40,000 nt of DNA from Buttiauxella massiliensis (GCF_902500225.1 NZ_LR722653.1:151909-191908); one strand, 5' to 3'. Numbered from the stretch's first letter, positions 1 to 33,105 are shown. Numbers and translations are program-made. The notes: a model not told the origin generated them from the letters alone.

Positions 1-38
1 TATGTTGCAGTGATTATTGAAATCTTGGCACAGTCCAT
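1..38 (-). CDS. 5' end of a further glycosyltransferase (GT2-like), truncated by the window edge
   Basis: The minus strand reads ATG(38..36) GAC TGT GCC AAG ATT TCA ATA ATC ACT GCA ACA = MDCAKISIITAT. The ISIITAT(YN) start is typical of GT2 N-termini. It begins 27 nt downstream of the preceding stop. Only 12 codons are visible. Confidence 0.35.
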   Translation of the reverse strand, partial: MDCAKISIITAT

Positions 39-65
39 TGATGACCTTCCATTAATAAATTTGAA

Positions 66-833
66 TTAACCACACCAAACCCCTTTAAAAAGTAGAACCA
101 AACCTTTAAAATAACCTTCGGGAATTTTAAATAATTTTGAGCGTCTGATGAAAAAAATCAACGCAAAAAAATAAGCCTTATTCCCGAAGATTCTTTTAAG
201 GGTCACTCCTCGTGCAATTACGCTATTAGCTGTAGAGATAACCCCAGTGGATTCTAGTGGATGACTGGCGATAGTATGCGGTGTATAAGTTATTCCACCT
301 CGAGCCAGAAGAACTTTAGAAAGGAAAACCGCTTCATCCCCAATAGGTAAACAGGTGCCGGCTCCCATATCCTCAGGGAACAATGGGACATTTTTATTTT
401 TCATAGAAATCTCTATAGTCCCTACTGATAATATATTAAATCTATTTTTATTAGTGACAACTTTAGGATACTTCTTCCTTAATACGCCATGCTCATCAGT
501 AATATTAAACAAAACAACACTACCACCATACTCTTTATGCTTACCCACTATCAAATTATAAATATCAGGATTAAGAGTAATATCATCATCACAAAAGTAG
601 ATGAGGTCTCCCTGAGACATTTTTATTAAAACATTTCGACTTCTAGTAACGCCGACTTCATGAGACCTAATGTAGGTAACATCATTTCTTTTTATAAAAG
701 CAATATCACTATTTAATTCTATATCACCCTGATGACATATATAGTAATGCACATATTTTCTATAAGGAAGCAATATGTTATCGATATTATAAATACGCTC
801 CCCAAAAGTAGAAATGAGAATATCAAGTTTCAT
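66..833 (-). CDS. O-antigen glycosyltransferase (GT2-like, DxD motif)
   Basis: 255-aa ORF. The N-terminal MKLDILISTFGER and a CDDDI (DxD) motif fit a GT-A fold. It is AT-rich and overlaps the wzy stop by 4 nt, suggesting translational coupling. Confidence 0.7.
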   Translation of the reverse strand: MKLDILISTFGERIYNIDNILLPYRKYVHYYICHQGDIELNSDIAFIKRNDVTYIRSHEVGVTRSRNVLIKMSQGDLIYFCDDDITLNPDIYNLIVGKHKEYGGSVVLFNITDEHGVLRKKYPKVVTNKNRFNILSVGTIEISMKNKNVPLFPEDMGAGTCLPIGDEAVFLSKVLLARGGITYTPHTIASHPLESTGVISTANSVIARGVTLKRIFGNKAYFFALIFFIRRSKLFKIPEGYFKGLVLLFKGVWCG

Positions 834-1975
834 TTATGTCTCGCATACAAAATTGAAAGAATTGTTAACCTTGTTAGCAATAGAGTCATTATTGCAAGCG
901 GTCCAAAAGCATAACCACTGAACAATGAAAGAACGAATAAAAACGACAAGCTTAGGAATATATTTTTTAATGTGATCTTCAAAAAAGAAATAAAAACGAT
1001 TATATACAGAATGAATCCCATGAGTCCCGTCGAAATAAAAACATTACTAATAAGGTTATTGGCTTGGGTTATATCAGGAATATTAAAATTACTAAAATAA
1101 TAATTCTGAACCCAAGCTGTAATATTTCCAAAACCCTCACCACTTACGAGTAAATAATAGTGTGAATTATTTATCGCATCAACAATATAATATTTCCATA
1201 AAATCATAGAGTTAAACCTTAATAATGCACTACTTGCAGTCGTTGCGCCTTGAAATAAAAAGAATACAGAATCTATTTTACTAACAATCCAAAAATCACT
1301 ACCCGAAAGAAAGAAAACCCAAATAACAATAAGAAGCAAAAGAGAAATTAAACAATATAAAACCGCCTTAAAAATATTTCTCGAATAGAAGTAACTCAAA
1401 AAATAGCCCAATCCAAAAAGCATGAACCCGGACAGTGACCATGTTAAAAGTAATCCAATTGCCAAAACCACCACAACCTTCATTTTACTCTTTGAGATAA
1501 TGGCCATAAGAAGAGAAAGTGACAAAATAATGGCATAGTGCGATGGTTCAGCAAACAAAAAAGTCAATCGCATCAAGCCAAGGACTTCATTACTTCTATA
1601 CTCCCAGAGAGAAATTCCAAAAGTTCGTAATATTGATATAACTATTGAAAATGGAACAGAATAAGCAATTATATTAATAATTGTATTTCGAGACTGGATC
1701 AGTGATTCATTACTTATGAGGACATACAAAGAAACTGTTAAAAGGGCCAAGACCAAAGCAGGGATTTCAAGCACACCGGAATAAGCATATGCAATAATTG
1801 TTATAAGCGTAAAAAGACAGAAAATAATGACTGTCAGTATGACCTTACGTAATTCAACCCCTCTATAAAAAACGTTAAAAATAAAAAAAGGAAGAGCGAA
1901 AAAAGATCCCCATCCGCTTACACACGAAAATAACACACCTAATAATAGTGCTTTATCACCTGAATTACCCTTCAC
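830..1975 (-). CDS. wzy: O-antigen polymerase Wzy (polytopic membrane protein)
   Basis: 381 aa, extremely hydrophobic with about 10 or more predicted TM segments and a large loop region. It sits among GTs in a Wzx/Wzy-type locus. The start codon is GTG (cac at 1973-1975). Called from topology and context, not from sequence identity. Confidence 0.65.
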   Translation of the reverse strand: MKGNSGDKALLLGVLFSCVSGWGSFFALPFFIFNVFYRGVELRKVILTVIIFCLFTLITIIAYAYSGVLEIPALVLALLTVSLYVLISNESLIQSRNTIINIIAYSVPFSIVISILRTFGISLWEYRSNEVLGLMRLTFLFAEPSHYAIILSLSLLMAIISKSKMKVVVVLAIGLLLTWSLSGFMLFGLGYFLSYFYSRNIFKAVLYCLISLLLLIVIWVFFLSGSDFWIVSKIDSVFFLFQGATTASSALLRFNSMILWKYYIVDAINNSHYYLLVSGEGFGNITAWVQNYYFSNFNIPDITQANNLISNVFISTGLMGFILYIIVFISFLKITLKNIFLSLSFLFVLSLFSGYAFGPLAIMTLLLTRLTILSILYARHK

Positions 1976-3155
1976 TTATCTCACATCCATTATCCAGTAT
2001 AAAAATTGGTTTTGGCAAAAAATCATTCATTAAGTTAACAGCTTGAGAAATATTCATAACATCTTCTGACATATACACATCTTGCATTTTACTGTAGCCA
2101 AATTTCGTTTTAATTTTAGGTATCAGGCTATCAAAGCGAAGCTTCCAAATTGAAACATAGTAACAAACAAACTTAAACCAAGAAAAACCCTCATAATTAC
2201 TGGTTCTAATTAACTGTACTAACTCCTGAAATCTTTCAGGGAAAAACACAAAACATCTTGCATATAAATATGTATAGTTTAAACAAAAATCATCTTTGCA
2301 ATGAAATTCATTTATTGAAGATGATGCACTTTGAGCCCAAATAGTTGGCCCGGACCAAAATTTTGGAATTAAACTATCCCATTTAGACGACGTATCTTTT
2401 GGGAGATGCGAGATTTCTTCAATATTACCTATATGTGTACGTTTGAGACCCATTCCAGCAGTGCTCTTAACAGAACTACCCGCAATAAACACAGGCCATT
2501 CAACACTAAAAAATGATTGCACAACCAGCCCCAAACTCACAGCATTTGCCATATCTGGACTAGGTCCCGGTAGATAGCATCCGGTACGGATTTTAACTTC
2601 ATCTAAACATTTACGTTGAACTAACCCATAATAGATCCTTGGCAACCCTCCTATTATTGTAGCCCCTAAACTCAGTACTTTATTTAACTCTTTCATAGCG
2701 TCACGTCGACGAAGTACTTCAGATATACTTTTTGAGTATCTAAGTTTGCTATTATTAAATGTAGAATTATATTTACTGATTAAATCAGGCCAAGTGTAAT
2801 CGGCTTTCATTGGTAATAATGCATCTATATTTTCATCAATCATTAAGGTGGATAAAAGCAAAATACAAGGTAAAACGCCATCATCATCACCAATAGCAGT
2901 TATAATTTGACCAGAACTATTGGTGATAGCCAATTCAAAATTATCAACTACAGATAGCCACTCAGACTCATAAAAATATTTTAGCCGATGGTCAGAAAGA
3001 TACTCCTCGATTGCAAGATAAGTGGCATTATCGTCGCTATTATCTTGTACAACAATTTCAAAATCCTGAGAATCCCAAGACAATATTGACGAAAGAACAT
3101 CCCTAAGGTATTCATGTCTATTTTTTGTTGGGATTAAGATACTTAAAGACGTCAT
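1965..3155 (-). CDS. Family 2 glycosyltransferase with a long C-terminal extension
   Basis: 396 aa. The N-terminus LSILIPTKNRHEYL...EIVVQDNSDD...GDDDG carries classic GT2 motifs. It overlaps the wzy start by 11 nt. Confidence 0.8.
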   Translation of the reverse strand: MTSLSILIPTKNRHEYLRDVLSSILSWDSQDFEIVVQDNSDDNATYLAIEEYLSDHRLKYFYESEWLSVVDNFELAITNSSGQIITAIGDDDGVLPCILLLSTLMIDENIDALLPMKADYTWPDLISKYNSTFNNSKLRYSKSISEVLRRRDAMKELNKVLSLGATIIGGLPRIYYGLVQRKCLDEVKIRTGCYLPGPSPDMANAVSLGLVVQSFFSVEWPVFIAGSSVKSTAGMGLKRTHIGNIEEISHLPKDTSSKWDSLIPKFWSGPTIWAQSASSSINEFHCKDDFCLNYTYLYARCFVFFPERFQELVQLIRTSNYEGFSWFKFVCYYVSIWKLRFDSLIPKIKTKFGYSKMQDVYMSEDVMNISQAVNLMNDFLPKPIFILDNGCEISEG

Positions 3156-3229
3156 TATTCATCCAATTTAAAATTCATTGAAACTCATACAGATAATAAA
3201 TTAAATATGAGTTTCAAATATTATCAAAA

Positions 3230-4243
3230 TTATTCCATACCTAGTTCTTTACGAACATATTTGAGAGTCAGCAATAGCTCCATCACTTGCTCAACATTTA
3301 AACGCTCAGTGTTATGAGATGTATAATCATCGAGTTCATTTAAATCAACCTGCCCAGTAGTAATGTATTTATCATAATTTAAATCACGATTATCCGCAGG
3401 TATTCTATAATAACGCCCCATATCTTCTGCTTTAACCATTTCCTCTCTGGAGACTAACGACTCATATAACTTTTCACCATGACGTGTCCCAATAATTTTG
3501 GCCTCAGTATCACTTTTACATAACTGCTTAATTGCTTCTGTGAGGTCGTTAATTGTGCATGCAGGAGCTTTCTGAACAAAAATGTCGCCCTGTTGTCCAT
3601 TTTCAAAAGCATGTAAAACCAGATCTACTGAGTCTTCTAAAGACATAAGGAAACGTGTCATATGTGGATCAGTAATGGTCAATGGTTTATTATTTTTTAT
3701 TTTTTCCAAAAATAAAGGAATAACTGATCCACGTGAAGCCATTACATTTCCATAGCGCGTGGCACACATAATCGTACCATTCGGTTTTTGACGTCGAGCT
3801 TTGGCAATAAGCACCTTTTCAGCCATAGCTTTGGATATACCCATTGCATTGATAGGATAAACAGCTTTGTCAGTACTTAGTAAAACAAGCCTTTTTACAT
3901 TTCGATCAATGGCAGCATTTAAAACATTTTCAGTACCGTAAACATTTGTCTTAACCGCCTCCATAGGATAAAACTCGCAGGATGGTACTTGTTTCAAAGC
4001 TGCAGCATGGAACACATAATCTACACCATCCATTGCACGATAAAGAGTTTCATAATCTCTTGTATCTCCGATTACAAATTTAAGCTTAGGATTAGCAAGA
4101 GCAATACGCATATCTTCTTGCTTCTTCTCATCTCGGCTAAATACTATAATCTCTTTTACATTTGTATTCAAAAAACGTTTCAGGACGGTATTACCAAATG
4201 AACCTGTTCCACCAGTAATCATTAACACTTTATCTTTAAACAT
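3230..4243 (-). CDS. fnlA: UDP-N-acetylglucosamine 4,6-dehydratase/5(3)-epimerase, FnlA/CapE/WbjB subfamily
   Basis: 337 aa. It has the Rossmann motif ITGGTGSFGN. STDKAVYPINAMGISKAM carries the MxxxK catalytic signature, with Met in place of the SDR Tyr, that distinguishes CapE/FnlA from PseB/PglF. It aligns end to end with my recollection of WbjB/Cap5E. Confidence 0.88.
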   Translation of the reverse strand: MFKDKVLMITGGTGSFGNTVLKRFLNTNVKEIIVFSRDEKKQEDMRIALANPKLKFVIGDTRDYETLYRAMDGVDYVFHAAALKQVPSCEFYPMEAVKTNVYGTENVLNAAIDRNVKRLVLLSTDKAVYPINAMGISKAMAEKVLIAKARRQKPNGTIMCATRYGNVMASRGSVIPLFLEKIKNNKPLTITDPHMTRFLMSLEDSVDLVLHAFENGQQGDIFVQKAPACTINDLTEAIKQLCKSDTEAKIIGTRHGEKLYESLVSREEMVKAEDMGRYYRIPADNRDLNYDKYITTGQVDLNELDDYTSHNTERLNVEQVMELLLTLKYVRKELGME

Positions 4244-4319
4244 AAAAAACCCTATAATCTCTATAGTACATTACTTATAATTAAGTATATTTAAATTATA
4301 AGTTACGTTATTTATCATT

Positions 4320-5684
4320 CTAAAAAAACAAATAATGACTTATAATCACCCCGCACCAATAAACAACAACTGCAGGAACGAAAGCAGGTATAATATACTT
4401 CAAGATATCTTTTATGCAAAACTGCACCTTTGATAAATAAAGACATCTAATCCCGCACAATACAATCACCAAACTGTAGTATACGCAAAAAACCCATGCA
4501 ATATAAGTGGAGTACCCAGTAACCCCCATAAAAAACACTGAAATAGCAAAAAGCAGTGATGATATTACTGAAAACTTAGCCTGAAACTTATAATCCTCCG
4601 CCACCGTCATCAGTACTGAGGGAATATAGCTTAATGCACCTATAACGAAAGCTGGTAATAACACCTTAGAAAACGTTAACACATCAGGTAATAGTGGATT
4701 ACGTCCAAGCCACAAACTTAAAACGTTTTCTAAAAACGGATACACAAATAAAACCGGGAGCACAACCATTATATAAATGGTCAAGCAAAATAGTAAGCTG
4801 TATTTTCGGTAATTTGCATCATTCTTAGTTATATTACTAACGATAAATGGTTGATAATACTGTTTTATTGGACCAGCGATAGCCAGAATTGGTGTGGTAC
4901 TAAATGTAAATGCGAGATAATATGCTGCTAAAAAACTAGCACCTTCGAATTTACTTAACACTATTTTGTCTAATTGCATAACTAGTGCTGCAGAAAATCC
5001 AAATAGTAGTAATGGGAAACCTTTTTTTACCAAAGGCAATACCCCAAAAAATATTTTTTTTATATCTAATGAAGATATTGGCCCAACCTTTAAATAGGTT
5101 GGTAAAAATACAAATATCATTGCAAATACAATTGACACAATAGTTTGTGACAAAATAAACACAAAAATATCATTTGAGATGTATTTTATAGCGACCAATG
5201 TCACAACACCTCTTAAAACGACAGAAAAGAACAGCAAACCACCACTGACTTTAAACTCTTTAAGCCCATTCAGATATGAAACTGATACATTCTGTATAAG
5301 AAGTGATAATATTAATAACAATGTTGACAGCATTGTCAATTCATCGAAATCACCCCAGCCATATACAAATGAAAGAGGAAAATAAATTACGTATGTACAA
5401 CTATAAAATATTATCAATAATAATATTGCACTTAAATATTGTTCATATCCTTTACGTTGACTGACTTCACTATCTGCTGCATCCCTACCAATTATGGTGG
5501 TAGTACCAAAATCAAGAGTTAGTGCCGCACTAACTAACGATAACAATAAGGCTACTTGTCCAAAGCTTTCGGGCCCCAAAACCTTGCTGTATATTGGCAT
5601 GAAAAAAAAGCCAACCATTAAGGCTCCCATTTTCCCAAAATACAGCATGCCTAAATCAAATATTTTTTTACTCATTAACGTCAC
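4320..5684 (-). CDS. wzx: O-antigen flippase Wzx (MOP/PST family)
   Basis: 454 aa with about 12 or more hydrophobic segments. The N-terminal region ...GKMGALMVGFFFMPIYSKVLGPESFG is typical of polysaccharide-biosynthesis (Wzx) proteins. The start is either GTG at 5684 or ATG at 5675. Confidence 0.8.
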   Translation of the reverse strand: MTLMSKKIFDLGMLYFGKMGALMVGFFFMPIYSKVLGPESFGQVALLLSLVSAALTLDFGTTTIIGRDAADSEVSQRKGYEQYLSAILLLIIFYSCTYVIYFPLSFVYGWGDFDELTMLSTLLLILSLLIQNVSVSYLNGLKEFKVSGGLLFFSVVLRGVVTLVAIKYISNDIFVFILSQTIVSIVFAMIFVFLPTYLKVGPISSLDIKKIFFGVLPLVKKGFPLLLFGFSAALVMQLDKIVLSKFEGASFLAAYYLAFTFSTTPILAIAGPIKQYYQPFIVSNITKNDANYRKYSLLFCLTIYIMVVLPVLFVYPFLENVLSLWLGRNPLLPDVLTFSKVLLPAFVIGALSYIPSVLMTVAEDYKFQAKFSVISSLLFAISVFFMGVTGYSTYIAWVFCVYYSLVIVLCGIRCLYLSKVQFCIKDILKYIIPAFVPAVVVYWCGVIISHYLFF

Positions 5685-5686
5685 AA

Positions 5687-6805
5687 CTATTTAATTTCAG
5701 TCATAATTAAAGTGATAATTTTCTCAATTTCTTTCATAGAAAGCCACCAACCGCAAGGTATTGCAACAAGACTAGTCTCAATTTTATCAATGCCGGGTAA
5801 TATTCTTTTAGAAGAATTAAAACAGCTGTAACGATCATTCCGCATGTGTAAGGAGGAAACACTCACACCATGCATTTTCATATTAGCTATAAATTCCTCT
5901 TTTCTATCTACATGAATAAAAAGAACCCATCCATTCACAATTGCTCCACTAATTGGTGAAACCACTGACCCACAACCCTTTTCAAAAGAATGGGATAAGC
6001 TATCTAGCATTCTTTTGAAATTTTCTATAGTTTGAATTGTACGCTGCTCAAAATTGCTTTTTAATTTATAATAAGCAATAGCAGCACTTATATTATTGAT
6101 ATTATATGAATAACCATAAGTTTCAACATCTTTGCTTTCATTAATCTCTCCATTGTTTTTTCTAAAACCCATAAAATCGACACCAAAACGCCTTCTTTTA
6201 CGAGCAACAACCGCATGTTCAAACGAAGAAAATGCTATACAGCCACCATCAATTGAACCTATTTGCCTATTAGGATAGAAGGAAAAAATAGCTGCATCCC
6301 CCCAACTTCCAAGCAAGGTATTATCAAGCCTACTACCGAATGCAGAATTACAGTCTTCGATTAAATACAAAGAATTTTTTGTACAGAAGTCTTTAATTTC
6401 TCTGACATCGGCGGGATAACCAGCGACATGATAAACAAGTATAGCTTTCGTTTTTGATGTCACTAGTTTAGCTATTTCATCAACTCTAACACTGAGTGTT
6501 GTCGGATCAAGGTCAGCCCATACAGGTATAATACCTTTAGTTGCTAAAGGAGACGTTGTTGCAAGGCAGCTAAATGGCGATACAATAACTTCATCCCCCT
6601 CCACTACACCTAATACATCAAGTACTATAGACAGACCGTTAGTCATATCATTAACTGATACAGCATGTTTTCCATTTAATAAATCTGAGATTGAATTCTC
6701 AAGCAACGAGACATACTCACCATTGGCTACCATTCCAGAATCGAAAATATCACAGGTTATTTTTTTTATTTCATCATCATAATCTACATTAAATAAGTTA
6801 ATCAT
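5687..6805 (-). CDS. DegT/DnrJ/EryC1-family paralog lacking the PLP Schiff-base lysine (K to R); function uncertain
   Basis: 372 aa, collinear with the adjacent aminotransferase. Shared motifs are IEDC..., FSF......DGG, GY.YN.NN and IPCGWW.S. It reads FSFYPNRQIGSIDGG where the neighbour reads FSFQAIKHMTTVDGG. SSGTAAL is also replaced by NDMTNGL, and DCAHALG by DCNSAFG. Confidence 0.8.
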   Translation of the reverse strand: MINLFNVDYDDEIKKITCDIFDSGMVANGEYVSLLENSISDLLNGKHAVSVNDMTNGLSIVLDVLGVVEGDEVIVSPFSCLATTSPLATKGIIPVWADLDPTTLSVRVDEIAKLVTSKTKAILVYHVAGYPADVREIKDFCTKNSLYLIEDCNSAFGSRLDNTLLGSWGDAAIFSFYPNRQIGSIDGGCIAFSSFEHAVVARKRRRFGVDFMGFRKNNGEINESKDVETYGYSYNINNISAAIAYYKLKSNFEQRTIQTIENFKRMLDSLSHSFEKGCGSVVSPISGAIVNGWVLFIHVDRKEEFIANMKMHGVSVSSLHMRNDRYSCFNSSKRILPGIDKIETSLVAIPCGWWLSMKEIEKIITLIMTEIK

Positions 6806-6808
6806 AAA

Positions 6809-7903
6809 TCAACCTTTCTTAATTTCGTCAACAATCGTTTCACGTATCGTTTCGCTAACCCACCATCCACATGGAATGTGCACTAGCCTTGAATAAAAGT
6901 AATCGAGATTATTCATATCAGCTGATTTAAATTTACTAAACATGGTATGATAGTGATTTGGTCGGTGTAATTTTGATGCCATTACATCAACAGATTTCAA
7001 CTTCTTAATAAGATTATCTGAATCATCACTAAGCAACGTATATAACCAATAACTAGGTTCACAAAGTGAGGATGACTGAACAACTTGGACGCCAGATACA
7101 TTTTCTAAATTTTCATCAAAGAATTGACCGTTATTTTTATGCTTATTAATATTATCAATAGCAAAATCAAGTTGTATATTCCCTATAGCACCAGTAAGAT
7201 TATTCATGTTGTATTTATATCCTAAACTGGAAACATCCATCAATGTTCTATCAATCCCTTTTTCCATCCCAAACCATCGGATTTTTTTCGCTTCACTTAA
7301 TAAAGAATGATTCTTAAATGAAAGAAATCCACCATCAACCGTAGTCATATGCTTTATAGCTTGGAATGAAAATATACCAAAATCACCAATAGTACCAACC
7401 GGTTGGTTATCATATTTTGCCCCAAGAGCATGGGCGCAATCTTCTATAACACTAATATCACTATTAATCGCTTTAATTTTTTCCATCAACTCTTTCATTT
7501 CGACCAAATAACCAGCATAGTGCACAACGACAATAGCTTTGGTTTTGGATGAAACCATTGAAATAATAGATTGAGGATCAAGACAACCAGTTATTGGATG
7601 AACATCCGCAAATACAGGAATACCTCCAGTTTGTACTATAGTGGTATTTGTTGGCTCTGCAGTCATACTAGTTGTTATTACTTCATCTCCCGCTTTTACT
7701 CCTGCAAGTATTAGCGCTGTATGAAGTGCAGCCGTACCGCTACTCATGGCGACTCCTGTAGGAACATCGAATATTTCACGAAATTTATTTTCGAACGTGT
7801 AAACATGCTCCCCTTCACCGATCATACCACTATAAAGAACATCTTCTATTTCTTTCATCAAAATATCTTTTGGCGGCATGAATACTTTTACGATTGGAGT
7901 CAT
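6809..7903 (-). CDS. DegT/DnrJ/EryC1-family PLP-dependent nucleotide-sugar aminotransferase
   Basis: All canonical motifs are present: MSSGTAALHTAL, IEDCAHALG, and FSFQAIKHMTTVDGG with the catalytic Lys. The ORF track starts at 7918. ATG at 7903 has the better SD (GAGAGG about 8 nt upstream) and sits 1 nt after the upstream TGA. Confidence 0.85.
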   Translation of the reverse strand: MTPIVKVFMPPKDILMKEIEDVLYSGMIGEGEHVYTFENKFREIFDVPTGVAMSSGTAALHTALILAGVKAGDEVITTSMTAEPTNTTIVQTGGIPVFADVHPITGCLDPQSIISMVSSKTKAIVVVHYAGYLVEMKELMEKIKAINSDISVIEDCAHALGAKYDNQPVGTIGDFGIFSFQAIKHMTTVDGGFLSFKNHSLLSEAKKIRWFGMEKGIDRTLMDVSSLGYKYNMNNLTGAIGNIQLDFAIDNINKHKNNGQFFDENLENVSGVQVVQSSSLCEPSYWLYTLLSDDSDNLIKKLKSVDVMASKLHRPNHYHTMFSKFKSADMNNLDYFYSRLVHIPCGWWVSETIRETIVDEIKKG

Positions 7904-7904
7904 T

Positions 7905-8705
7905 TCATATCCTCTCATTTAGTTTAAAGTCTACAGAATTATAATTTTCTTCTGTATTATCGTTTGCGAATATCTTGATCATTCTTATATTTTGATCTTT
8001 ACTTTTTATTTCCAAAAGCGCTCTTAAGCTATAAAAAAAAGACAGTTGGTCAATAGTTGTATTTATATAAAACCCATTAGGTGAAAGTTTGTCCATTACA
8101 CTACACATGTCATTTATTGCACATTCATAGTCAATAACATAAAACTCTTTTTCGCTGGCGCAATATACTATATAGCTATTATCCCATTCTAATCTTTCTT
8201 GATATATTGCAAATGGTGGTAGAGATTTATCATTTAATGTATAATGCTTGATTTCTATTTTTTTTTCAGCATTATTTATGATGATATTTTTTTTTCTAAT
8301 ATAGATGAGAACATTATGATCTATTAATTTATAACCATGTTTTTTGTACAGATGATGCTGCCCCGACCATAATATTGCTAACTGTATATTTTCACATTGC
8401 ATTAACTCATCAGCTTTATTCATGAGCAAACTGAAATATCCAAGACCGCGATAATCTTCATCTATACATACCAATCCTATAATTGCTGTTCGAATATTAT
8501 TTTTTATTTCTATCTTTAGTGTCATCCCACCAATAAGTTTAATTCCGCTATGTATTTCAATTGTATAAAAAAATGCATCTGCATTGAAAAACCAAGGGAA
8601 ATGTAGTTCAAATTTAATCCCTCGTTTTTTCTGGGTGAAAAATGTTTTCCAGCATAATTCTTTATATTCACTGGATAGTTGTTTACGTATCTCTATTCGA
8701 CTCAC
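7905..8705 (-). CDS. GNAT-family N-acyltransferase with an unassigned ~120-aa C-terminal domain
   Basis: 266 aa. The acetyl-CoA motif A, IGLVCIDEDYRGLGYFSLLMNKA (R-x-x-G-x-G), lies in the N-terminal half. It is the first gene after the JUMPstart. The only available start is GTG (cac at 8703-8705). Confidence 0.65.
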   Translation of the reverse strand: MSRIEIRKQLSSEYKELCWKTFFTQKKRGIKFELHFPWFFNADAFFYTIEIHSGIKLIGGMTLKIEIKNNIRTAIIGLVCIDEDYRGLGYFSLLMNKADELMQCENIQLAILWSGQHHLYKKHGYKLIDHNVLIYIRKKNIIINNAEKKIEIKHYTLNDKSLPPFAIYQERLEWDNSYIVYCASEKEFYVIDYECAINDMCSVMDKLSPNGFYINTTIDQLSFFYSLRALLEIKSKDQNIRMIKIFANDNTEENYNSVDFKLNERI

Positions 8706-8754
8706 GGCCCCTCCGATGAATGAAAAAAGTGTGCACAGGATTCTTTTAAATAGC

Positions 8755-8793
8755 CATGCTACCGCCCCAGGCTTAACAGCTACCAGTGGACTG
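8755..8793 (-). promoter_or_regulatory. JUMPstart element with ops site (RfaH recruitment) in the O-antigen operon leader
   Basis: The minus strand reads CAGTCCACTGGTAGCTGTTAAGCCTGGGGCGGTAGCATG. This closely matches the 39-bp JUMPstart consensus and contains ops GGCGGTAGnnTG (8766..8755). It lies about 50 nt upstream of the first O-antigen gene. Confidence 0.85.
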
Positions 8794-9066
8794 AAATCTC
8801 AAACACTTGCCAATCTCTCAGGCTCGCATTTGGCTAAATTTTGAGAAACATTCGAATGAACAAGTAGTTAGTTAGAGTAACTATTTAGATAACAAGCATT
8901 TTCTAGTTCATTCAGAAATGCAGATGACAATTATTTTATTCACACTTTGTAACACGCAACTCAAAAAAAACGGCAACCAGTCTCAATGAGGTTTCAACTA
9001 AGAAATCTCACCGCCACATTGATCGCCGTTCTGCATCAAATGCTCACCACCATTGTTCTAAAACGC

Positions 9067-9963
9067 TTAGCGCGCCAGCAGCTTCTGAATGCTGTCCCTG
9101 AACTTCTGACCTTCTTTATGGTTACGCAGACCGTATTGTACAAATGCCTGCATATAGCCCATTTTCTTACCGCAGTCATAACTTTCGCCAGTCATCAATG
9201 CAACTTCTACCGCTTGCTTTTTATTAAGTGCAGCGATGGCATCGGTAAGCTGAATACGTCCCCAGGCACCCGGCTCGGTTTTCTCGAGTTCAGCCCAGAT
9301 ATCAGCTGACAGAACATAGCGCCCTACCGCGGCCAGATCGGAATCCAGTGTTTGTGGTTCATCCGGTTTTTCCACAAACTCGACAATGCGGCCAATCTGC
9401 CCATCATTATCTAGTGGTTCTTCCGTTGTGATAACTGAGTACTCAGACAAATCAACGTTAGGCATGTGTTTTGCCAGAACCTGGCTGCGCCCTGTCTCTC
9501 TGAAACGCTCAACAATCGCCGCTAAATTATAACGCAGTGGGTCAGCACTTGCGCCATCAAGGATAACGTCAGGCAATACCACAACAAATGGGTTGTCACC
9601 AACAATCGGACGGGCGCACAAAATGGAGTGACCAAGGCCTAGCGGTTGAGCTTGACGTACGTTCATAATCGTCACGCCCGGAGGGCAGATTGACTGAACC
9701 TCAGCGAGCAACTGGCGCTTAACACGCTGCTCAAGCAGAGCTTCAAGTTCATAAGATGTGTCGAAGTGGTTTTCAACAGCATTCTTGGATGAATGCGTTA
9801 CCAGCACGATTTCCTTGATACCAGCAGCTACAATCTCATCGACGATATATTGGATCATCGGCTTATCGACGATCGGTAACATCTCTTTTGGGATAGCTTT
9901 TGTTGCGGGCAACATATGCATGCCCAAGCCTGCTACCGGAATAACTGCTTTCAAATTAATCAT
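9067..9963 (-). CDS. galF: GalF, UTP-glucose-1-phosphate uridylyltransferase-like subunit
   Basis: Near-identical to my recollection of E. coli GalF ([52 protein letters not shown]...). The ORF track starts at GTG 9975. ATG at 9963 reproduces the K-12 N-terminus and has a GAGGTG SD about 9 nt upstream. Confidence 0.95.
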
Positions 9964-9992
9964 ATTCAAGCCCACCTCAAAATGGTTGGGGG

Positions 9993-33067: not shown

Positions 33068-33105
33068 CATGCTACCGCCCCTGGCTTACAGTCACCAACC
33101 TACTG
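33068..33105 (-). promoter_or_regulatory. JUMPstart/ops element in the colanic acid (wza) leader
   Basis: The minus strand reads CAGTAGGTTGGTGACTGTAAGCCAGGGGCGGTAGCATG. ops GGCGGTAGCATG lies at 33079..33068, 189 nt upstream of the wza ATG. The 3' 14 nt are identical to the O-antigen copy at 8755-8768. Confidence 0.8.

Follow-up and report, generated by a model that had tools for sequence, protein, structure and literature searches.

Which sugar is made by an O-antigen locus whose only visible nucleotide-sugar route consists of an FnlA/CapE-type dehydratase, two members of the DegT family and a GNAT acyltransferase, and at which carbon does its amino group end? This question is raised by a stretch of 40,000 nucleotides from Buttiauxella massiliensis (GCF_902500225.1, NZ_LR722653.1:151909-191908; G000:C25:151909-191908 in our numbering), hereafter the window, which was analysed together with a further 12 kb to its left (the extended locus, L002). 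An earlier note on this DNA had answered that the FnlA product is transaminated and N-acylated to a 2-acetamido-4-acylamino-2,4,6-trideoxy-L-hexose. Based on the comparisons below, the stretch is likely to hold the galF-proximal part of a Wzx/Wzy-dependent O-antigen cluster that is a diverged, gene-for-gene homologue of the Escherichia coli O182 cluster, with the module for L-RhaNAc3N, a 2,3-diamino L-rhamnose sugar, as its sugar route. The amino group would then most likely end at C3, not C4. The two DegT proteins are named here after the residue at the catalytic position, DegT(Lys) and DegT(Arg).

The kinship with O182 surfaced only through protein homologues of DegT(Arg), which at 52-55% identity pointed to contigs of E. 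albertii, E. coli and Lelliottia sp. Between galF and gnd, these contigs match the Buttiauxella cluster in all nine genes and in their order. Protein identity between the Buttiauxella cluster and these O182-type clusters is 89-90% for the FnlA-like dehydratase, 64-65% for DegT(Lys), 53-55% for DegT(Arg), 29-32% for the GNAT and 49-50% for Wzx; for the remaining genes it is 54% (GT2a, the first of three family 2 glycosyltransferases, GT2), 47-52% (GT2b), 64-65% (GT2c) and 40-50% (Wzy). The E. coli version occurs in seven complete genomes at an identity of at least 99.4%, and RefSeq assigns its wzx and wzy to the 'O182 family' (wzy: 'O182 family O-antigen polymerase'). A megablast search of window positions 1-8900 against 5,426 complete E. 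coli genomes returned only the O26-type fnlA, at 74%, and no E. coli cluster. Because the serogroup-specific proteins are not near-identical to those of O182 (Wzx 50%, Wzy 48%), the Buttiauxella cluster is not the O182 serogroup itself. A near-identical, already characterised cluster whose structure has no 4-amino-L-sugar had been named beforehand as evidence against a C4 product; what was found in O182, and in O109 and O119 as described below, comes to the same in spirit, the match being homologous and not near-identical.

The cluster is a rare member of the O182-like family, newly found in Buttiauxella. Of the seven cluster proteins that could be located by exact look-up in a collection of about 15 billion sequences, six are singletons at 90% clustering, a count that omits the first DegT protein (DegT1), Wzx and Ugd2, which are not in the collection as translated. 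The seventh, the FnlA-like protein, falls into a 90% cluster with proteins of E. coli and Lelliottia. Among 15 other Buttiauxella species representatives, none carries the DegT(Arg) gene, and a single one has an FnlA homologue, there as part of a true fnlABC set. The suspicion of a rare serogroup was thus well founded. As a separate observation, the O182-type FnlA-like protein is represented in many E. coli draft genomes only by partial copies of 275-313 aa, on contigs of 0.8-1.8 kb, and it seems that assemblies often break inside its gene.

A distant blastn search with both DegT genes led to two further E. coli groups, O109 and O119. The gene order is GNAT, DegT, DegT, wzx, 'polysaccharide biosynthesis protein' in O109 and formyltransferase, DegT, DegT, 'polysaccharide biosynthesis protein' in O119. 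Identity to the Buttiauxella proteins declines from O182 through O109 to O119, with values of 89%, 80% and 78% for the FnlA-like dehydratase, 64%, 56% and 55% for DegT(Lys), and 55%, 37% and 36% for DegT(Arg). The GNAT is 31% identical to that of O182 and 34% identical over 118 aa to that of O109; Wzx is 50% and 31% identical to its O182 and O109 counterparts, respectively, and GT2a is 33% identical to an O109 GT2.

The module of O109 and O119 is described in the literature, its primary paper being that of Perepelov et al. 2011 (FEMS Immunol Med Microbiol 61:47). A beta-L-RhapNAc3NAc derivative has also been reported from Edwardsiella tarda. In the published assignments, WeiO is an acetyltransferase, WekD a formyltransferase, WeiP/WekE and WeiQ/WekF are aminotransferases and WeiS/WekG is a dehydratase/epimerase, and the UDP-L-RhaNAc3NAc and UDP-L-RhaNAc3NFo pathways are counted among those 'not based on experimental data' (PMC7685785). 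WeiS, WeiP and WeiQ are the predicted makers of L-RhaNAc3NAc in O109, and their Acinetobacter baumannii homologues have been renamed rhnABC (PMC9676051). The strongest argument comes from the gene upstream of the DegT pair: since the swap of GNAT (O109) for formyltransferase (O119) tracks the acetyl/formyl difference in the published sugars, the module should end in an N-acylated amino group. By homology, the four sugar genes of the window correspond to a route that is already known, as a prediction, for derivatives of 2,3-diamino L-rhamnose. The 2-acetamido-4-acylamino product suggested at first is not supported, as the same module is assigned in O109 and O119 to L-RhaNAc3NAc and L-RhaNAc3NFo, which carry a 3-amino group and a 4-hydroxyl.

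The module is not confined to enterobacteria. A profile of DegT(Arg) was run against one genome per species and yielded 43 loci, of which one 273-bp fragment was left out. The set spans Oxalobacteraceae, Burkholderiaceae, Comamonadaceae, Pseudomonas, Shewanella, Sphingomonadaceae, Flavobacteriales, Prochlorococcus, Treponemataceae, Bdellovibrionota, Myxococcales and others. In every one of them (42/42), a DegT(Lys) orthologue of 49-60% identity lies directly upstream of DegT(Arg), and an FnlA homologue is found in the fetched flank of about 37, including nearly all loci with enough flank. These counts support the earlier proposal that the FnlA product goes to the DegT and GNAT enzymes and not into an FnlB/FnlC branch. 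Upstream of the pair, about half of the loci have a GNAT related to the one found here; the other occupants of this slot are a formyltransferase (L024, L029), an LbH (left-handed beta-helix) acyltransferase (L031, L035), a 3-hydroxyacyl-CoA dehydrogenase (L052) or unrelated genes. Such an interchangeable slot (loci L020-L061) suggests a family of N3-acyl variants of one sugar. Moreover, O109, O182, Buttiauxella, Pseudomonas, Cupriavidus and Shewanella all have a gene of the size of wzx inserted between the DegT pair and the dehydratase, which gives the impression that flippase and sugar module travel together; Pfam recognises a Wzx-type flippase in Pseudomonas (L037 10137-11498), and the Shewanella reading frame (L044 10130-11488) has no Pfam hit. 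Collectively, the module appears as a widely travelling cassette with a core of dehydratase and two DegT genes, a swappable acyltransferase slot and, often, its own flippase.

We then considered the first enzyme. The FnlA-like dehydratase closely matches by sequence the solved structures of FnlA (PDB 4j2o, 1.6e-148) and CapE (4.5e-141). It scores 538 bits against the FnlA equivalog model TIGR04130 (cut-off 730) and 331 bits against PseB (cut-off 408). Maximum-likelihood analysis places the 34 dehydratases found beside a DegT pair without FnlB/C in a single clade (100/98 support), which takes in those of the window, O182, O109 and O119; outside it fall the FnlA genes flanked by FnlB/C, namely those of E. 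coli O26, of the one Buttiauxella congener and of several among the 42 loci. The catalytic block STDKAVYPINAMGxSKA is identical in the module clade and in true FnlA, and only five clade-specific positions, all conservative, separate the two. These two features weaken the idea of a neofunctionalised dehydratase. Furthermore, about six loci have the DegT pair with only a true fnlABC set nearby; because true fnlABC replaces the module dehydratase there, the product of FnlA is taken as the substrate of the DegT pair. The first step is thus most likely ordinary FnlA chemistry, in line with the assumption of the earlier note.

The two DegT proteins are 32% identical to each other and differ in the catalytic motif, which is FSFQAIKH, with the Schiff-base lysine, in DegT(Lys) and FSFYPNRQ in DegT(Arg). 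Arg180 of DegT(Arg) aligns with the lysine of the solved structures 4zwv, 4lc3 and 7b0d, and arginine occupies the catalytic lysine column in all 123 of the 123 DegT(Arg) homologues examined, those of O109, O119 and O182 included. Lacking the Schiff-base lysine of the SFxxxK motif, the product of the gene at 5687-6805 falls outside the canonical definition of a DegT/DnrJ/EryC1 enzyme. The family invariants are SFYPNR, the aspartate of IEDC, His320 and Tyr326, and the retention of this aspartate and of the invariant polar residues argues against the product of a decayed pseudogene.

These features can be placed in a pathway. L-RhaNAc3N keeps the C2 configuration of GlcNAc, is inverted at C5 (by FnlA) and carries nitrogen at C3 and a hydroxyl at C4; the sole redox-neutral way to it from a 4-keto intermediate is a 3,4-keto shift followed by transamination at C3. 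In the proposed scheme, the FnlA-type enzyme, a close homologue of the solved FnlA and CapE, would convert UDP-GlcNAc to UDP-2-acetamido-2,6-dideoxy-beta-L-hex-4-ulose. The keto group would then shift from C4 to C3, the likeliest agent being DegT(Arg), which would either be a 3,4-ketoisomerase itself or be required by the transaminase as its partner. Subsequently, DegT(Lys) would aminate C3 to give UDP-L-RhaNAc3N, and the Eis-like GNAT would N-acylate it, acetyl being the default guess, to a UDP-2-acetamido-3-acylamino-2,3,6-trideoxy-L-mannose. This product would be built by the three GT2 enzymes into a WecA-primed tetrasaccharide, flipped by the Wzx embedded in the module and polymerised by Wzy. 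DegT(Arg) is proposed to provide or enable the keto shift because the module has no open reading frame (ORF) for a cupin or a reductase.

How DegT(Arg) might do so can be read in two ways. It is conceivable, although we hold it to be doubtful, that DegT(Arg) is a new enzyme type, namely a 3,4-ketoisomerase on an aminotransferase fold or another lysine-independent catalyst that uses pyridoxal or pyridoxamine phosphate. If true, this would explain how 2,3-diamino L-rhamnose sugars arise from a cassette with neither a cupin isomerase nor a reductase. A literature search for a link between FnlA and a ketoisomerase found none, and no other search addressed a Lys-to-Arg DegT. Also rather unlikely is a variant of the second step in which DegT(Arg) is the non-catalytic partner of DegT(Lys) in a heterodimer and the keto shift comes from FnlA-type enediol chemistry or takes place in the one active site of the heterodimer. 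Enzymes of the DegT family are obligate dimers whose active sites are shared, and the two genes are always adjacent and in the same order, 3 nt apart here; DegT(Arg) also evolves faster (36-55% identity) than DegT(Lys) (55-64%). However, the invariant signature of DegT(Arg) argues for ligand binding or catalysis in its own right, and a dehydratase that differs from true FnlA by just five conservative clade-specific changes, and that true FnlA can replace, is a poor candidate for the keto shift. Since the proposed pathway has no obvious enzyme for the keto shift, the invariant DegT(Arg), of which more than 120 homologues are spread over many phyla, stands out as a clearly delimited candidate for sugar-nucleotide chemistry of a new kind.

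Several points weigh against a C3-aminated product. No ORF for a cupin-type 3,4-ketoisomerase or a 4-reductase occurs in the module, which leaves the second step without precedent. The pathway has never been reconstituted (PMC7685785). The GNAT and the DegT proteins are 31-64% identical to those of the characterised clusters, and specificity could have drifted over this distance. O182 itself reportedly contains L-RhaNAc3NAc (2,3-diacetamido-2,3-dideoxy-L-rhamnose; Senchenkova et al. 2016, Carbohydr Res 435:58), and no open text stating the structure of the O182 polysaccharide was found. Finally, both DegT proteins are nearest to solved C4-aminotransferases (4xau/4zwv, CalS13, perosamine synthase, ArnB and PseC-type enzymes), and C3-aminotransferases such as QdtB score lower for both. 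We take 4xau and 4zwv to be TDP-sugar aminotransferases of the CalS13/AtmS13 type; they are listed only as 'putative aminotransferase'.

It is these matches that speak for the route of the earlier note, in which DegT(Lys), in the manner of PseC, transaminates C4 of the FnlA product and the GNAT acylates N4, the resulting 2-acetamido-4-acylamino-2,4,6-trideoxy-L-hexose entering the O unit directly. The best NCBIfam matches of both DegT proteins are likewise PseC/LegC-type, the route needs neither a ketoisomerase nor a reductase gene, and a 4-amino sugar would be the end product, since the genome has no nonulosonate synthase. However, all PseC/LegC scores lie far below their cut-offs (203 vs 423 bits), the orthologous modules of O109 and O119 are linked to L-rhamnose derivatives with a 3-amino group, as reportedly is O182, and the universally co-inherited DegT(Arg) would have no role. 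We therefore consider amination at C4 unlikely.

The absence of other routes was followed beyond the window. From the window edge leftwards, the extended locus continues with GT2c, ugd2, gnd, ugd, rmlB, rmlA, wzz and the his genes. The earlier note had reported no rml genes, which is correct within the window; the locus does carry rmlB-rmlA beyond ugd (L002 4981-6946; G000:C25:144889-146854), between ugd and wzz and 5-7 kb past the window. The argument that no dTDP route was available is therefore an artefact of the window edge, although these genes appear unrelated to the module. Above the family cut-offs, the genome has just one copy each of rmlB and rmlA. The cluster for enterobacterial common antigen (ECA) is wecB-wecC-wecD-wecE (G000:C7:53480-59910), in which wecC abuts wecD and leaves no space for rffG/rffH. 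Three other Buttiauxella species representatives also have rmlB, rmlA and wzz side by side, at 74-83% DNA identity, and all three are without the module. Because these are the only genome copies, because the ECA cluster is devoid of rffG/rffH and because congeners without the module share rmlBA-wzz, rmlBA is most likely a lineage feature that supplies dTDP-4-keto-6-deoxyglucose for ECA (dTDP-Fuc4NAc) and not for this O antigen. In Buttiauxella, the dTDP-glucose genes required for ECA thus seem to have been relocated to the end of the O-antigen locus where wzz lies.

These data bear directly on a further explanation, in which the DegT pair and the GNAT act on dTDP-4-keto-6-deoxy-D-glucose from rmlB-rmlA, giving for example acylated Qui4N or Fuc4N, and the FnlA-like enzyme is an unrelated orphan. 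The proximity of rmlB-rmlA to the window and the CalS13/AtmS13 type of the nearest solved structures, listed only as 'putative aminotransferase', are in its favour. However, the module occurs without in-cluster rml genes in the O182-type clusters of E. coli, E. albertii and Lelliottia, and rmlA and/or rmlB homologues accompany the module in only about 5 of the 42 loci, whereas an FnlA homologue accompanies nearly all. Together with the sole-copy status of rmlA and rmlB, the ECA cluster lacking rffG/rffH and the presence of rmlBA-wzz in congeners without the module, this makes a dTDP-linked product highly improbable. On the locus survey, the congeners and the single-copy status, rmlBA was rejected as part of the O-antigen route.

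The rest of the genome, which is 100% complete, also offers no conventional continuation. Profile searches for a WbjC/FnlB-type reductase gave nothing above 35 bits, the best match being the FnlA-like gene itself; a WecB-type 2-epimerase search found only the ECA copy and no FnlC-type partner; and the NeuB/PseI family (PF03102) had no match. Neither fnlB/fnlC nor qnl or nonulosonate genes lie in the 12 kb past window position 1, so that the sign of a conventional pathway for which the earlier note had asked to look there is absent. The earlier statement that fnlB/fnlC and pseI are missing hence holds genome-wide as well as past the window edge. A truncated pseudaminic or legionaminic acid route was rejected, as NeuB is absent and the scores are below cut-off. 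The only strong DegT-family genes in the genome are wecE and the two of the window. A side observation is that no ArnB-type aminotransferase was found, and the operon for modification of lipid A with 4-amino-4-deoxy-L-arabinose (L-Ara4N) may be absent.

The acyltransferase is the most diverged member of the module. It belongs to a rare family of proteins of about 265 residues, with 210 matches among 1.8 billion representatives in an exhaustive HMMER search; a word-indexed protein search returned only the query itself, and no solved structure matched by sequence. An AlphaFold2 (AF2) model built from an alignment of 19 module-linked homologues reached a mean predicted local distance difference test (pLDDT) score of 91.7. 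Its best structural matches are Eis-type tandem-GNAT acetyltransferases, with a template modelling (TM) score of about 0.6 over the whole length, and proteins of this type acetylate amines of aminoglycosides. Judging from the model, the C-terminal domain probably represents a degenerate second lobe of the GNAT type, and a function as amino-sugar N-acyltransferase is plausible. Identities of 31-34% to the O182 and O109 enzymes are too low to name the acyl donor; as a lesser possibility, the diverged Eis-like enzyme may attach an acyl group other than acetyl and so give a new sugar derivative.

The coordinates of the genes are collected in the table below. From galF, the order is GNAT, DegT(Lys), DegT(Arg), wzx, FnlA-like, GT2, wzy, GT2, third GT2, ugd2 and gnd. 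All O-antigen genes are on the minus strand and closely packed, with overlaps or gaps of at most 76 nt. The GNAT gene overlaps the start of DegT(Lys) by 14 nt, so that the acyltransferase gene is directly upstream of the DegT pair, and the spacing from DegT(Lys) to DegT(Arg) is 3 nt.

Table. Features of the O-antigen locus in the window (positions counted from the first nucleotide of the window)
Feature	Position	Strand	Remarks
GT2c, 5' end	1..38	-	TuaG-like third glycosyltransferase, 252 aa; remainder outside the window, L002 11280-12038
GT2b	66..833	-	glycosyltransferase family 2, 255 aa; PF00535
wzy (O-antigen polymerase)	830..1975	-	381 aa, many hydrophobic segments; no Pfam hit
GT2a	1965..3155	-	glycosyltransferase family 2, 396 aa; PF00535
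FnlA/CapE-type UDP-GlcNAc 4,6-dehydratase/5-epimerase, 'WeiS/RhnA' clade	3230..4243	-	337 aa, SDR family; TIGR04130, 538 bits
wzx flippase, embedded within the sugar module	4320..5684	-	454 aa; PF13440/PF01943
DegT(Arg): DegT-like, Arg for Schiff-base Lys (SFYPNRQ), WeiQ/WekF/RhnC type	5687..6805	-	372 aa; PF01041, 5e-59
DegT(Lys): DegT/DnrJ/EryC1 aminotransferase, catalytic Lys (SFQAIKH), WeiP/WekE/RhnB type	6809..7918	-	369 aa; PF01041, 2e-78
Two-domain GNAT N-acyltransferase, WeiO slot	7905..8705	-	266 aa; GNAT Pfam matches on residues 19-127
ops core GGCGGTAG of JUMPstart element, operon leader	8756..8766	-	second copy at 33069-33079
galF, upstream boundary of the O-antigen locus	9067..9975	-	NF007516, 627 bits

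The abrupt change in composition noted near 8.9 kb, with AT-rich DNA below it, was borne out. The content of guanine plus cytosine (GC) is 33.4% in positions 1-8705, 40.2% in the leader at 8706-9066 and 50.3% in 9067-40000, which locates the switch in the leader of 360 nt that separates galF from the first O-antigen gene. The view that this O-antigen cassette, bounded by galF and gnd, was acquired by lateral exchange likewise stands. Only two of the three GT2 genes inferred there are complete within the window; the third does exist, starting at base 38 and running off the edge. The expectation of a WecA-primed unit of four or more sugars agrees with three glycosyltransferases and WecA, which imply a tetrasaccharide unit. 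WecA is present in the ECA cluster, and priming of the O unit by it is plausible. A second WecA-like gene lies outside that cluster (G000:C21:170492-171505), scoring 426 bits against the ECA_wecA model, above its cut-off. The in-cluster ugd2 (L002 10070-11242) encodes a second UDP-glucose dehydrogenase of 390 aa at 38.5% GC; it is 77% identical to ugd across gnd, is not found in O182-type clusters and suggests a uronic acid in the O unit. Beyond galF, a second, identical ops core (GGCGGTAGCAT) at 33069-33079 stands ahead of the colanic acid operon, the genes of which are only 74% identical to those of E. coli at the DNA level. The flanking proteins WcaM, Wzz and RmlB fall into clusters of at least 90% identity with proteins assigned to Buttiauxella, among them those of B. 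gaviniae and B. noackiae.

The locus can thus be set against several known systems. Superficially, the trio of inverting 4,6-dehydratase, DegT and GNAT is that of the pseudaminic acid pathway (PseB, PseC, PseH, followed by PseG/I/F). However, the Buttiauxella enzymes score 331 vs 408 bits for PseB and 203 vs 423 bits for PseC, and NeuB/PseI is absent from the genome; PseH is a single domain of about 180 aa, whereas the enzyme here is a 266-aa Eis-like tandem fold. The UDP-L-FucNAc pathway of FnlA/B/C (WbjB/C/D, CapE/F/G) and its L-QuiNAc and L-RhaNAc branches start with the same kind of enzyme, with the catalytic block kept, but continue with reductase and 2-epimerase partners, none of which is in the Buttiauxella genome, and the dehydratase here belongs to a separate clade below the equivalog cut-off. 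The dTDP-3-amino-3,6-dideoxyhexose pathways (RmlB, FdtA/QdtA, FdtB/QdtB, FdtC/QdtC), including those to Fuc3NAc and Qui3NAc, follow the same redox-neutral logic as the one proposed. In contrast to these pathways, which use a cupin isomerase, the carrier here would be UDP, the sugar an L-series 2-acetamido sugar, and a lysine-less DegT would stand in the isomerase's place.

The nearest relatives are the L-RhaNAc3N clusters. WeiO/P/Q/S of O109, WekD/E/F/G of O119 and RhnABC of A. baumannii KL166/KL224 are made up of the four enzyme types found here, arranged in this order as well. O109 and Buttiauxella have in common the wzx embedded in the module, and O109, O119, O182 and Buttiauxella share the Lys-to-Arg signature in the second DegT. 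In contrast, WeiO is only 34% identical (118 residues) to the Buttiauxella GNAT, which makes the acyl group uncertain, and outside the module these clusters (glycosyltransferases, wzy and other sugar genes) are unrelated to that of Buttiauxella. Finally, the E. coli O182 cluster has the same locus, gene set, order and orientation, with the Buttiauxella proteins ranging from 31% (GNAT) to 89% (FnlA-like) identity to it; in contrast to O182, Buttiauxella has an extra ugd2 before gnd, and rmlBA beside wzz. Collectively, these comparisons add Buttiauxella to the O182/O109/O119 family of L-RhaN3N O antigens, which is of interest to serotyping and glycobiology.

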